DNA from: Octopus sinensis
Lineage: Eukaryota
Assembly: GCF_006345805.1 (NCBI RefSeq)
Contig: NC_043006.1
Span: 75,640,001-75,704,000 of the forward strand
Length of the DNA stretch: 64,000 nt
Direction of reading: 5' to 3'
Shown here: positions 8,352-47,032 of the stretch, piece after piece
Numbering within the stretch: position 1 is the first letter of the stretch
Layout of the letters: every line of letters starts with the position of its first letter
The notes under the pieces: model-generated
Databases searched by the model: none
What the model saw: the letters and a program-made list of their open reading frames with translations, nothing else
What the model was told of the DNA's origin: nothing
Made by a program: the position numbers and the translations under genes

Positions 8352-8860
8352 ATATATTTAGTGAGGGAAGAAATGGAGCTGAACGGATTTTACAAAATTC
8401 CTTTATTATTTTTCTACATATGTTTCAAAGGCTGCAAAGTCCCTAATTCGGATTGAATAAGGAGGACCATTTTGCAGCTTTCTCTTCAGGAAAATCCAGG
8501 AACTTAAATCTCCAACAAAATGCGCAGCAAGCTTTTCGACAAACGCTCTCTAGGAGCCCATGGGCTCCTAGAGAGCAGAGAAAGCTGCAAAATGGTCTCC
8601 TTATTCAATCCGAATTAGGGACTTTGCAGCCTTTGAAACATATGTAGAAAATAATAAAAAGGAATTTTGTAAAATCTTCGTTCAGTTCCATTTCTTCCCT
8701 CACTAAATATATAAAACTTCAAATTTCCGCACTAAGGCACGGTTTTGAGACCCCATGGTCGTAACCTCAACCGTCATTTTTCTGTTGTGATTTTTGCTAC
8801 CCAGGTATCGGTTATAATTTGAATAATCCGTAACAGATAATTCATTTATCCATTTCAATA
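8352..8860. mobile_element. (TA)n-inserted fold-back element with a hammerhead motif (Penelope-type inverted terminal structure)
   Basis: Inverted arms at 8352-8485 and 8577-8713, a 32-bp perfect palindrome at 8545-8576, then a unique tail to (TA)n. Confidence 0.8.
8409..8495 (-). ncRNA. Type I hammerhead ribozyme motif
   Basis: UUUUC-CUGAAGA-[GAAAGCUGCAAA...UUUGCAGCCUUU]-GAAAC-AUAU-GUA-GAAAA. Stems I, II and III all pair and the core is intact. Confidence 0.8.
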
Positions 8861-9248
8861 TATATATATATATATATATATATCTATATATAGTACCATA
8901 TAAGGCGAAAAGAATGGGCGAAAAAGTCGTTATATGTATGTATTTCTGTTATGGGCGTTGGTATTCTTTTAAAAAAATGATAATAATAATAATAATACTA
9001 ATAATAATAATAATAATAATAATCTATTGATAAGTACGTAAGTGCATAGGTGTATATATATATATATATATATATATATATATACTCACACACACACACA
9101 CATACTTACACACGCTCACACATACATGCATATTTATGTATTTGTGAAAGAGACAGGGAAAGAAAGAGACATATATATATATTTTTTGTACAGTCTTACT
9201 CAAGCCTGGGTATTGTTCATCGTTCTCTGTGTTAATACGAGTGTAAGT

Positions 9249-9308
9249 GATAGAGCGGTAGAGCGATAGAGCGACAGAGCGATAGAGTGACAGAGCGATA
9301 GAGCGATA
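9249..9308 (+). repeat. (GATAGAGC)n octamer tandem repeat
   Basis: About 7 units, read directly. Confidence 0.85.
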
Positions 9309-9769
9309 AAATGATAAAAAAAGTAGCTAAAAAAAATACTATGATAAATTTATAAGACTACTTGTAAACTTACTATTTGAAGACATGCATTCATATACAT
9401 GAGGTTACATACACAACTTTCATTTGTATTTATTTACATTCATGCTGACTTAATTGATATCAAATTTCTTTCTCTCTGTCTCTCTTTAGTTTTTACTAAT
9501 TTCGTTTCTGCCTGTGTTTTTATGTTTACCCTTTTGTACGTTTTCCAATTTGGCGCATATACATATACATGTATCAACAAGAGAAAAAAGAAATTGCATT
9601 TTGTATAATAATTGATAAGGAGAAAAAGAGAGGTGCTGTTAGTTGAGAAATAAAATTTTCTGCTCACTAGTTTTATTGCAGGTTTCAGTGAAGAGGGTGA
9701 AGATCGGGTGGTAATAAAGAAAATACAAATCTTTGTAAGTAAAGATACAATATATATATTCTTTTATGT

Positions 9770-10240
9770 TCTTTTTTTCTTTTACTTGTTTCAGTCATTT
9801 AACTGCGGCCATGCTGGAACATCGCCTTTAGTCGAGCAAGTCGACCCCCAAGACTTATTCTTTGTAAGCCTAGTACTTATTCTTTCGTTGTCCTTTGTCG
9901 AACCGCTAAGTTGCGGGGATGTAAACGCACCAGCATCGGTTGTCAAGCGATGTTGTGGGGACAAACACAGACACACAAATATATACATACACATGCATAC
10001 ATACATACATACATACATACATACATACATACATACATACATACATACATACATACATACATACGTATATACATATATACGTGACGAGCTTCTTTCAGTT
10101 TCCGTCTACCAGCTCACAAGGCTTTGGTCGGCCAAGGCTATAGTAGAAGACAATTGCTCGAGGTGCCACACAGTGGAACTGAACCTGGAATCATGTGTTT
10201 TTTAAGGAAGCTACTTACCACACAGCCGCTCCTGCTCCTA
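9770..10240 (-). mobile_element. SINE family B, full length, internal (TACA)n
   Basis: The reverse complement matches the family B head, body and tail. Confidence 0.9.
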
Positions 10241-10544
10241 TATATATATATATATATATATATATATATGATGCAAAATAGGACAAGAACGCAAAACATC
10301 CCGACAGTTAGGTGATACAAAAAAGGGACAACAAAATGTCCAGATACACGATACAAAGAAAACAATGACGGATCTTTCGGAGTTTTCTTTCCTCAGTCGG
10401 GCTGCTGATTATCTTTGCAATATCGGCCGATTATACTCGAGATTGCTCCAATCTGGCCACCCCCAAGAAAAGACTAAGCTTATATATTCTGATGTTTTAG
10501 GAAATAGATTATGTAAAACGTTTGCGTCTATACTGTAGTTATAA

Positions 10545-10955
10545 ATGTTGGTTTGAAATTGTGGCACATTTCAGAGTAGGGGATAAGGCGATTACATCGA
10601 CCCCAGTGCTCAATTGGTAATTGTTATATCAATCCCGAAATGATGAAAGACGAAATTTGAAATGGACGAAATAACGCTAAACCTGTTTCTCGGTATGCCA
10701 TAGATTCTCTCAGCTCTCCGTCTTTACTGCAGTGATAAGGTTGGTTTCAAATTTTGGCACAAGGCCAGCAATTTTGGAGTAGGGCGTAAAGCGCGTACAT
10801 CGACCCTGTTACTCCTCTGGTACTTATTTTATCGACCACGAAATAATGAAAGGCAAAGTAGACTTCGATAGAATTTGAACTCAGACTATAAAAACGGACG
10901 ACATGCTGCTAAGCATTTTCCCCGATGTGCTGACGATCCTGACACCTTGCCGCCT
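10545..10955 (-). mobile_element. Two older SINE A-related copies (alternative tail TGGCCTTGTGCCAAAATTTGAAACC)
   Basis: Degenerate CATCGACCCCAGT...GGTACTTATTTTATCGAC...GAATTTGAACTCAGA segments at ~10590 and ~10795. Confidence 0.7.
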
Positions 10956-11317
10956 TTGCTGGAGTTATAGTGTTGATAATTCTTGTTGCTGTGTCAGTAA
11001 CACTTGTTTGGTTTAAGTAACAGTGATGTTATTATTGTTTTCTATTGTTTAACCTCTGGTCAGCCCTTATCGAGTAGAACCTGTGTTCAAAGTTATTCCA
11101 TATTTGACCATGCCACCGAATTTTTCGTATACCGCACACTACCTTATTGAATGCATCCTTCGATATTTTAAACAGTAAAGTGTGTCTGTGAGACATTTTG
11201 TTTCTATTTCTAGCTGGTTGGCTAACTACATGGTTAGTCCCTTTCGGTAGATAGTGATGTTTGTGAGTGAAGTTATTATGGTGGTGATTATTATTATTAT
11301 TATTATTATTATTATTA

Positions 11318-45047: not shown

Positions 45048-45572
45048 ATGTCAATCACAAAAAGGATAGATGGCATGACAGGCCTCGACTATTGGGGTCG
45101 ACAAGAAAAGCTAAAACTTTATTCTCTCCAATGTCGCCGTGAGGGCTACATCATCTGCATGATGTGGAAAATATTCCCTCAGCATTGCCCAAATGATGTT
45201 GGCATCACCTTTAAGGTACTTCCAAGGCTTGGGCCCCGTGCCATCCGCCCACAACAAAAATCGCACTCTCATCTCATAACAACAATACGGCACAATTATT
45301 TCACCTCAATTGGCCACGCTCTCTTTAACATTACACCAAAACACATTAAAACAGAAACAGACCCTATAGGGTTCAAGAAGTCTTTGGACAGATTCCTTCA
45401 AGAAATCCCGGATAAACCTCCTACACCAGGATATGTCTCTGTAAACAATAACTCTCTACTTGAGTGGGCTATAGTGCCCAAATTCTGACTTGAAAGACTT
45501 CACCAGGTGGTGCTATTAAGTTAGACATGGCCTGGGTCAATAATGGCCGAAACCTATCAAAGTATCAAAGTA
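45048..45572 (+). mobile_element. Second CR1-group LINE family, 3' end with (TATCAAAG)n tail
   Basis: GLDYWGRQEKLKLYSLQCRREGY..LFNITPK..FKKSLDRFLQEIPDKP, with the 3' end GAAACCTATCAAAGTATCAAAG. Confidence 0.9.
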
Positions 45573-45609
45573 TATATAATATACATATATATATATATAT
45601 TTTTTTTTT

Positions 45610-45762
45610 TCTCTCTCTGTGCTTTCTGTTGAAGAGCGTAGGCTCGAAACGTTAAAGAATTTGTTTTTATTTATTATTCTGAGCGCCATACTAATACAAT
45701 TGTTCGTTTGTTTTCCACCTGCCTTCGTCTTTTGTTTTTTATTTTCATAAAGCTTCCCGTTA
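45610..45762 (+). mobile_element. Solo Penelope 3' terminus with CUGUUGA hammerhead (45622-45657), same family as 28592-28745
   Basis: Near-identical reverse complement of 28592-28745, flanked by (TA)n. Confidence 0.85.
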
Positions 45763-45996
45763 TATATATATATATATACACTCAAACGCACATATGTAGG
45801 ATGTATGCATATATATATATATATGTACACACACTCAAACGCACATATGTAGGTGTGTATGTATATATGTGTATGCGCATATGCATATATGTGAGCCATA
45901 CTAATCTACATTATTATACCTATATATACGTATCTAACTGCATATAAATGTATGCACACACACAGTCACACACACACGTACATACATACATATATA

Positions 45997-46289
45997 TCAC
46001 GTGATCACGTGACCGACCAGACCATCAGATGTTGCTACACATCGCTGGTCACAATGCGTTCGCATTGTTTTAGCCTTCGAACGACGCCACCCCGTTGGCT
46101 AAGCGAGCAGGCCAACAGAAGAAAGAGTGGTGAAAGAGGACAGCAGGGATCACCCCCCCCCGCCGGAGCCTCGTGGGGCTCTTAGGTGTTTTCGCTCAAT
46201 AAACACACACAACGCCGGGTCTGGGAATCGAAACCGCGATCCTCCGACCGCGTGTCCACTGTCCTAACCCCTGGGCCATTGCGCCTTCA
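45997..46289 (-). mobile_element. SINE family C (head GGCGCAATGGCCCAG.GGTTAGG), tail type 1
   Basis: tRNA A/B-box-like head, with the tail ending GGTCGGTCACGTGATCACGTGAT. Confidence 0.85.
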
Positions 46290-46999
46290 CACATGCATAT
46301 ATATATATATATATATATATATAATAAATTAATAAATAAATAAAACATATCCATATATACATATATGTACGTACCTACCTCTACATGTATATATACATGC
46401 ATATATGGGTACAGGACACCAAAAAAACTTCGAACACAATGAGAAACGAAAACATAAACACAAAACCAAGGAAATGGACATTTTTTTTAAAACAACGAGT
46501 ACAGGACATACAAAACAAGGACAATTCCCCTTCTTCAGTCGCCTTAATTTCATCTACTCCATGTTTCGAAGGTCCCGCGAAAATCAAATTAAATACAATT
46601 TGAGATTTTTTTGCGGATGGTAACAAAAACAGGACAGTAACGACAGTACAAAATATAAACAGTAAAAGACAGGACAGAGAATAACAGTAACACAAACAAG
46701 AAGGGCTATTAAGCCAAACGAGATAAAAAAAATTTACGAACGCTATTGTTTGAGGACGGTAGAGAGAACAGATTACCGTCTCTACTTGACGGAGTCCAGG
46801 AGAAGAAAGACAGAAATAGCCATCTCATCACGTGACCGCGACGGGAGGGAGGAGGAGGAGTAAGAGAAAGGGAGAGAAATATATATATACATATATATAT
46901 ATATATATAATATATATATATATATATATAATGGGAGAGACTATATATATAATTTTTTTTTCTCCGTCTTCCCTTCCTTGGACGTTTCCTATTTCTATG

Positions 47000-47032
47000 T
47001 TTCTGACGAAGAGGTCCACTCGAAACGTTAAA
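47000..47032 (+). ncRNA. Minimal hammerhead motif, ~95 nt upstream of (TA)n
   Basis: UUU-CUGACGA-A-GAG-GUCCA-CUC-GAAAC-GUU-AAA. Confidence 0.7.

Follow-up and report, generated by a model that had tools for sequence, protein, structure and literature searches.

Hammerhead motifs linked to Penelope-like elements and short repeats, with family-fixed core variants, in a 64-kb window of the Octopus sinensis genome

What are the dozen small hammerhead ribozyme motifs packed into one 64-kb stretch of the Octopus sinensis genome, and are they still able to cut? The stretch, called the window below, comprises 64,000 nt of contig NC_043006.1 (positions 75,640,001 to 75,704,000 of the forward strand; assembly GCF_006345805.1) in a microsatellite-rich genome of 2.72 Gb. 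A first-pass annotation of the letters had placed 12 minimal hammerheads there and ascribed them to retroelements that target microsatellites, and all 12 were found at their coordinates and on their strands. They are very probably type I hammerhead motifs at the 3' ends, that is, in the pseudo-long terminal repeats (pLTRs), of several families of Penelope-like elements (PLEs) and in short non-coding elements that likely borrow PLE enzymes, present mostly as truncated, likely inert copies in (TA)n. The repeat nature of the motifs, the linkage of five groups to PLEs, the fixed 3' ends at TA, the two-armed insertions and the family-fixed cores are observed; the core variants are the less ordinary part, and the initial observation and interpretation otherwise hold.

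Motif inventory and repeat families

Motif groups are named by the start of their window copy, and core positions follow hammerhead numbering (U6, for example, is U at position 6). The features are as follows:

8409-8495 (-): type I hammerhead with canonical core, long stem II and stem III inner sequence CATATG; descriptor match; short arm of a head-to-head insertion (about 8358-8857)
8577-8692 (+): thirteenth copy, added by a homology sweep; inverted, 5'-truncated partner arm of 8409 without CUG start, extending to the family's second, longer 3' end
13637-13670 (+): decayed copy of the U6-core superfamily (CUG-U-C-GA), flanked by TA repeats
15659-15714 (-): hammerhead at the 3' end of a Hydra-like PLE; two substitutions inside the motif in the window copy
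17051-17113 (-): canonical-core hammerhead in a short element (about 16859-17145) nested in the 15659 element
17498-17851 (-): broken GIY-YIG endonuclease remnant with Hydra-clade motifs, part of the 15659 element (7377 candidates in the genome search)
18378-18467 (+): canonical-core hammerhead; long stem II opening with a U-U mismatch and partly decayed
28691-28728 (-): minimal hammerhead with U6 core, in the 3' pLTR of a Neptune/Nematis-type PLE that is truncated at its 5' end
29564-30444 (-): reverse transcriptase (RT) thumb, linker and GIY-YIG remnants of the 28691 element, cut off at (TA)n (tblastn with the L062 protein)
34183-34563 (+): remains of the GIY-YIG endonuclease of an older Neptune/Nematis-type PLE (E 0.002 for Pfam GIY-YIG, below cut-off; 4273 candidates)
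34799-34833 (+): decayed hammerhead of the 34183-34563 element; canonical core in the family majority
35606-35640 (-): A3-U8 core hammerhead with stem III inner CCGG, at the 3' end of a Neptune/Nematis-type PLE
42886-42947 (-): hammerhead in the inverted arm of a head-to-head insertion (42593-43766) of a retrozyme-like monomer of about 570 bp
43503-43564 (+): hammerhead with non-palindromic stem III in the forward arm of the 42593-43766 insertion
45622-45657 (+): U6-core minimal hammerhead in a truncated pLTR fragment of about 160 bp between TA repeats
47000-47032 (+): canonical-core sibling of the U6 superfamily, in a short element

A type I descriptor demanding stem I, the core box, stem II, GAAA, a palindromic or hairpin stem III and a UH site gave three window matches with the canonical core, compared with a mean of 0.0 in 100 local dinucleotide block shuffles. 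With variant cores allowed, seven matches were obtained (shuffle mean 0.01, maximum 1), a count above composition-matched chance. Because the variant cores had been picked after viewing the window, the scan was repeated on 800 kb of the genome, taken as 80 pieces of 10 kb at even spacing, which contained 35 matches (26 canonical, 5 U6 and 4 U3-A8, two pairs being alternative readings of one site) versus 0-2 in ten shuffles. Scaled from 35 per 0.8 Mb to the whole genome, this implies about 1e5 intact motifs. Rfam was silent on the stretches scanned: no hammerhead reached the gathering score in the window or in eight loci, and none was among 150 listed of the 248 E-value matches, which agrees with the claim that repeat annotation would usually miss these motifs. 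The window motifs 13637, 18378, 34799, 42886 and 43503 fail the descriptor, and all five align to genome-wide families whose members pass it. The local density proposed at first, roughly one motif per 5 kb, stands for the 12 motifs together (one per 5.3 kb), but the single descriptor finds only one per 9 kb here and one per 23 kb in the 800-kb sample.

The stem III palindromes were as listed (in 13637, ACGT followed by A), and stem III is palindromic or absent in 10 of the 12 motifs. The family singled out as an exception is one: the 43503/42886 pair carries the non-palindromic ACGT-TG-ACGT, which is able to close a short hairpin. When the palindrome demand was dropped (800 kb, canonical core), 16 of 22 matches were palindromic and five of the other six were one change off, whereas shuffles gave 0-1. 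The microsatellites expected 40-190 nt downstream lay within 190 nt of nine motifs (37-159 nt), compared with 35% of random positions, but 192, 207 and 286 nt away from the rest; moreover, the junction was almost always (TA)n, and the (CA)n also named came first at 34799 only.

The motifs do belong to multiple families, but the 12 represent only 11 insertions in nine groups: 28691, 45622 and 13637 form one superfamily, and 42886 and 43503 are two arms of one insertion. All motif groups are repeats found across the genome. For eight of them, DNA searches yielded 275-3694 first-look candidates (1504 for the 8409 group), of which 40 were scored and 30 retrieved per search; the loci of the 34799 group were retrieved via their endonuclease. 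In alignments, the window copies 13637, 15659, 18378 and 34799 showed decay compared with their relatives, and the unpartnered window copies, with no second copy on the same strand, are probably inert.

Additionally, most copies of the 17051 group begin sharply at about 30 nt before the motif, and most relatives in the 47000 group at 75-95 nt before it; by their boundaries, both groups resemble short non-autonomous elements. The 43503 group occurs in head-to-tail arrays of 568-571-bp monomers that are 99% identical, with one hammerhead each and no long frame. Similar 535- and 557-bp hammerhead arrays were present in the 800-kb sample. Both are young: the 535-bp array (L292:2600-5600) is 99.5-100% identical and two-armed, and the 557-bp array (L350:1-3500) is 98% identical and includes one U6 unit amid otherwise A6 units.

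Penelope-like elements and the insertion pattern

The connection to PLEs and retrozymes, suggested earlier from the motif type, is shown by a full element with RT and GIY-YIG domains, by PLE remnants in five groups and by the arrays of the 43503 group, which are free of open reading frames (ORFs). The complete element, at locus L062, has two direct repeats of about 650 bp that are 4.5 kb apart and 96% identical, and both of these pLTRs contain the 28691/45622 U6 motif. Its ORF matched Pfam RVT_1 (1.4e-8) and GIY-YIG (0.007, below cut-off), and its protein has a CxxxxCxxC linker and CCHH. In the window, protein remnants of the L062 type (29564-30444) run into the 28691 motif, and the endonuclease at 34183-34563 runs into the 34799 motif. 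Same-sense PLE protein was found within 1.45 kb upstream in three groups: in 18/36 copies of one, in 23/29 copies of the 34799 group, whose loci were chosen through their endonuclease, and in 14/33 copies of the 35606 group, whose upstream protein is related to that of L062.

A Hydra-like endonuclease precedes two more groups, 15659 and 8409 (7 of 30 family matches in the latter). In the 15659 group, it has a CxCx5C linker, no CCHH, and CxxC and CxH around conserved E and N, all across L368-L396; in the 8409 group, CxxC, E, N and CxH were seen and no linker was found. The Hydra-clade assignment rests on these linker and endonuclease motifs, by which PMC8557442 defines the clade, and the Neptune/Nematis type on domain order, linker and CCHH. 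Specifically, the L062 and L428 translations show RT followed by C-terminal GIY-YIG, a CX2-5CxxC linker and the CCHH motif, and the type of the 34799 group was assigned from an endonuclease fragment and upstream RT matches. A protein search returned 883 relatives with RT-type domains, none with a clade name. In every linked group, no other domain lies between the endonuclease and the hammerhead, and this C-terminal position ruled out Naiad PLEs, which have an N-terminal endonuclease and no canonical hammerhead. For the 8409 and 35606 groups, no full-length copy with two direct pLTRs was found, both 7-kb loci examined being truncated and containing inverted parts.

A further young Neptune/Nematis-type family was seen at L061, L067 and L072 (1008-aa frame in L061); no descriptor match lies within about 2.6 kb downstream of its ORF, and its hammerhead may be farther away, variant or absent. 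The region 15577-17851 (-) has a nested history, in which a Hydra-like PLE end was broken by copies resembling short interspersed elements (SINEs) and the 17051 element lies within the TA tail of one such copy.

Microsatellite targeting, also proposed at the outset, is visible in family copies that end at fixed positions against TA-type repeats. Two fixed 3' ends, 85-150 bp apart, occur in the 8409, 15659, 17051, 18378 and 43503 groups, and two about 50 bp apart in the 35606 group. Head-to-head insertions use one arm per fixed end in 12/13 (8409), 7/10 (15659), 9/9 (17051) and 10/13 (43503) cases, as do both two-armed insertions of the window. The end falls on an internal TA stretch, 4-7 nt long, in four of the seven groups and on none in the other three. 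A TA match of at least 4 nt at the junction was present in 25/29, 15/19, 13/19 and 9/19 copies of four groups, compared with 2-6% of positions, the matching copies of each family sharing one site and thus not being independent. This arrangement suggests priming by short homology at the internal TA stretch. The 157 incidental copies divide into 124 that run across the predicted cut site, 30 with a start downstream and 3 whose start is no more than 5 nt away, without any pile-up of 5' ends at the site. That most copies span the cut site indicates that the copied RNA was uncut or rejoined.

The proposed course of events is that the PLE endonuclease cuts a TA repeat and reverse transcription begins within the element RNA, 35-300 nt past the hammerhead, at either of two fixed positions and often at an internal TATA stretch able to pair with the target. 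Synthesis would then pass through the uncut or rejoined ribozyme and usually halt early, and extension of both DNA ends would yield a head-to-head pair, each arm ending at its own site. The two fixed ends of these pairs provide a genomic read-out of two-ended reverse transcription. The hammerhead of the source element would be a slow ribozyme that needs a second copy or the PLE protein and processes tandem transcripts. U6 and A3-U8 would be weakened yet still selected versions of it, and the short and tandem elements would be trans-mobilised by PLE enzymes.

Changed catalytic cores

The cores had been described as CUGANGA-like. The deviations are real, but two of them are fixed family variants rather than mere looseness. 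The canonical CUGANGA is the majority in six of the nine groups, though not in the U6 superfamily, the A3-U8 family or 26/43 of the 15659 copies. In the U6 and A3-U8 families, the core is changed in nearly every copy, and from the pattern of substitutions these motifs are predicted to be still able to cut.

The U6 pattern has 16,046 exact genome matches, compared with 0 for the reversed control, and stem I, together with canonical siblings that share stem II, fixes its parse. In an alignment of 31 incidental superfamily copies anchored outside positions 3-9, with flanks at a median identity of 70%, position 6 was U in 29 copies and indel-shifted in the other two, as constant as the other core positions. 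Meanwhile, position 7 was A10/U9/C7/G5 and position 17 was A20/U8/C2/G1. Position 17 avoids G in hammerheads. Common descent could by itself hold U6, but positions 7 and 17 contrast with it in a way that favours selection. The 28691 family is present in four contig sets with four organism labels (kind unconfirmed), where no other letter at position 6 was listed; this search indicates presence only, at an 85% cut-off below which canonical siblings would fall, and a search for expression listed no RNA record containing it.

In the 35606 family, A3-U8 replaces C3-G8, and this pattern has 1,587 genome matches versus 337 for the control. Most of the 30 matches retrieved (L397-L426) belong to a second family with a 25-nt core and a 2-bp stem II (GC-GAUA/GAAA-GC), which has PLE protein upstream in 8/30 loci and is among the smallest hammerhead-like motifs. 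Additionally, 2 of 33 aligned 35606-family copies carry the compensatory double change G3-C8, representing one event, and U3-A8 cores occur in other families (4 of the 35 sample matches). Judged from these copies, the 3-8 pair covaries, being A-U in the 35606 family, G-C in its sub-branch and U-A elsewhere. In the 15659 group, position 4 is C in 26/43 and U in 16/43 copies, and G5 is kept in 38/43. The G10.1-C11.1 pair is present in the U6, 47000, 34799 and 35606 groups and replaced in the 8409, 15659, 17051, 18378 and 43503 groups.

Two sequence features adjoin these cores. A TGAGCG-like word lies 20-25 nt downstream of 28691, 45622 and 47000, is kept across subfamilies that are 65-70% alike, and may be a protein-binding or promoter element; a role as a switch pairing with stem II was rejected, with no covariation and no such pairing in the predicted folds. 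In the majority of the 15659 family, G12 and the 3' side of stem II together make up a perfect 14-nt palindrome, possibly a second dimer contact or a competing fold.

Folding of natural copies predicted dimer pairing through stem III, together with a competing hairpin in U6 but not in A6 copies. The predicted G5-C15.2 pairing had group medians of 0.3-0.97 in 19 U6 copies versus at most 0.01 in nine A6 siblings, a comparison confounded by further differences in loop II and stem I. One rather unlikely idea is that U6 acts as a safety catch, in which a U6-A15.1 pair would zip the monomer into a non-catalytic hairpin and keep the RNA intact as RT template; opening would come from manganese, from the PLE protein or from a partner copy. 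If this were true, the U6, A3-U8, U3-A8 and G3-C8 cores of one genome would form a natural mutagenesis series in which PLEs select for conditional ribozymes of reduced activity, and the genome's most successful hammerhead lineage would be the one with a fixed safety catch.

Known systems, competing explanations and neighbouring repeats

Lunse et al. reportedly described minimal hammerheads in metazoan PLE repeats. The literature searched contained no paper on U6 or family-wide A3-U8 cores, and that work or its supplement may already list them. The class is known: PLE repeats with hammerheads, stem III of the dimer type and TA targeting have all been published. Minimal type I hammerheads of PLE pLTRs are abundant and heterogeneous, occur in inverted pairs, include a U3-A8 variant and cleave weakly as dimers (PMC4209133), and (TA)n targeting by PLEs has been reported (PMC8557442). 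In the literature listings consulted, cephalopod PLE hammerheads appeared only in PMC8557442 and in an Rfam count in PMC6962438.

The window families share with the metazoan motifs of PMC4209133 the type I topology, the extra base after A9, the absent or palindromic stem III and the frequent GUU/GUA sites, as well as many heterogeneous families per genome with mostly single truncated copies and some inverted pairs. In contrast, their stem II is far longer (a region of 30-70 nt), G10.1-C11.1 is missing in five groups, and the family-fixed U6, A3-U8 and the G3-C8 sub-branch were not among the representatives in the part of that supplement compared. C-terminal GIY-YIG, with the CxxxxCxxC linker and CCHH in some groups, is shared with Neptune/Nematis and Hydra PLEs, and CxCx5C without CCHH links the 15659 group to the Hydra PLE. 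The (TA)n targets, the inverted truncated partner and a tail at one end only are also shared with the PLEs of that work, but the fixed ends are about 50-150 bp apart here versus a tail of 30-40 bp there (PMC8557442). The Poseidon element PAc of Anolis carolinensis likewise has two internal RT start sites, extension of both strands and AT-rich targets, and its uncut RNA template and protein-assisted hammerhead cleavage are comparable features; its start site is not homologous to the target, whereas four of seven groups here end at a target-matching internal TA (PMC11167929). Metazoan non-LTR retrozymes, for which a PLE origin has been proposed, are published as ORF-free tandem monomers with one type I hammerhead each (PMC7229834; bioRxiv 10.64898/2026.07.22.740005), which fits 42886/43503, although the 43503 monomer, known here from DNA, measures about 570 bp versus about 300 bp in a typical retrozyme. 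Finally, the A6C hammerhead of phage Bcep176 is a natural position-6 substitution like U6, but the change here is to U, in a dimer-type retroelement motif with at least 16,046 copies, compared with one phage locus (PMC3088659, PMC7151607).

Why PLEs retain hammerheads is an open question (PMC8557442). In this genome, a large family with recent activity has fixed a core change that should cripple the ribozyme, and the free and restricted positions behave as in working hammerheads; natural U6, A3-U8 and G3-C8 cores with canonical siblings bear on whether PLEs need fast, slow or no cutting. Several observations weigh against functional, PLE-derived ribozymes. Few copies start at the cut site, indicating that cleavage leaves no visible mark on the insert ends, monomers are predicted mostly not to adopt the hammerhead fold, and most window copies are solitary or have an opposite-strand partner. 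A6C strongly lowers activity in magnesium (PMC3088659, PMC7151607), and insertion of the anole PLE in vitro does not need the hammerhead and copies from an uncut RNA template (PMC11167929). The insertion rules are also uneven, with one arm per end in only 6/11 insertions of the 18378 group and clearly in 1/2 of the 35606 group, and with junction TA matches in 0/20 copies of 18378, 1/6 of 35606 and 1/3 of 15659. It is possible, although we doubt it, that the PLE origin is right and the variant cores, U6 above all, no longer cut, being kept as protein-binding or folding signals or hitchhiking in a successful lineage. The copies spanning the cut site, the hairpin predicted for natural U6 copies and the success of Naiad PLEs without canonical hammerheads (PMC8557442) are compatible with such a loss. 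However, across subfamilies about 70% alike, position 17 avoids G, position 7 varies and the rest of the core is constant, which is what cleaving hammerheads would be expected to show, and the compensatory G3-C8 branch points to a function for A3-U8.

That PLE proteins are involved at all is also not evident in every group: none was found within 1.45 kb upstream in 17051 (0/29), 18378 (0/35), 43503 (0/31) or 47000 (0/35) copies. If all motifs were autonomous retrozymes spreading through RNA circles, the adjacent PLE coding remnants would be incidental. The near-identical ORF-free arrays of the 43503 group, the 535- and 557-bp arrays of the random sample and the three further groups without a coding link agree with this, but many copies of five groups run on without a break from PLE ORFs and L062 is complete. 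A retrozyme reading, which fits only the 43503 group, is improbable for the whole set and excluded for the linked groups. Chance matches that arose in AT-rich DNA full of repeats and were then multiplied by transposons could be imagined for so short a motif, given that several window copies need mismatches and that 35% of random positions lie near any simple repeat (24% near TA/CA/TG). This explanation retains a negligible probability, being refuted by the window shuffles, the sample shuffles (0-2 versus 35 matches) and the palindrome test, and unrelated families hold the full motif with different, compensating stems.

Other repeats were also seen in the window. Between the 34799 and 35606 elements, a near-perfect inverted repeat of about 450 bp (34968-35421; 221-nt arms, 85% complementary) lies between TA/TG repeats and is possibly a miniature inverted-repeat transposable element or a two-armed insertion of another element. 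At 53006-53058 (-), a U6 small nuclear RNA (snRNA) fragment at the Rfam gathering score (44.3 bits) is fused to a SINE-like repeat (about 52590-53010), and the junction looks like a chimeric retrocopy. The frames at 23216-23761 (+), 43757-44080 (+), 45012-45488 (+), 37099-37428 (-) and 32549-32890 (+), for which Pfam gave no match, resemble the C-terminal portions of RTs from long interspersed elements (LINEs). A 100-N assembly gap (about 6660-6760) adjoins a degenerate TA/CA array with a duplication of about 550 bp. A mariner-type transposase fragment was identified at 49538-50092 (-) (Pfam Transposase_1, 1.7e-20), and 47903-48268 may be a second transposase remnant.

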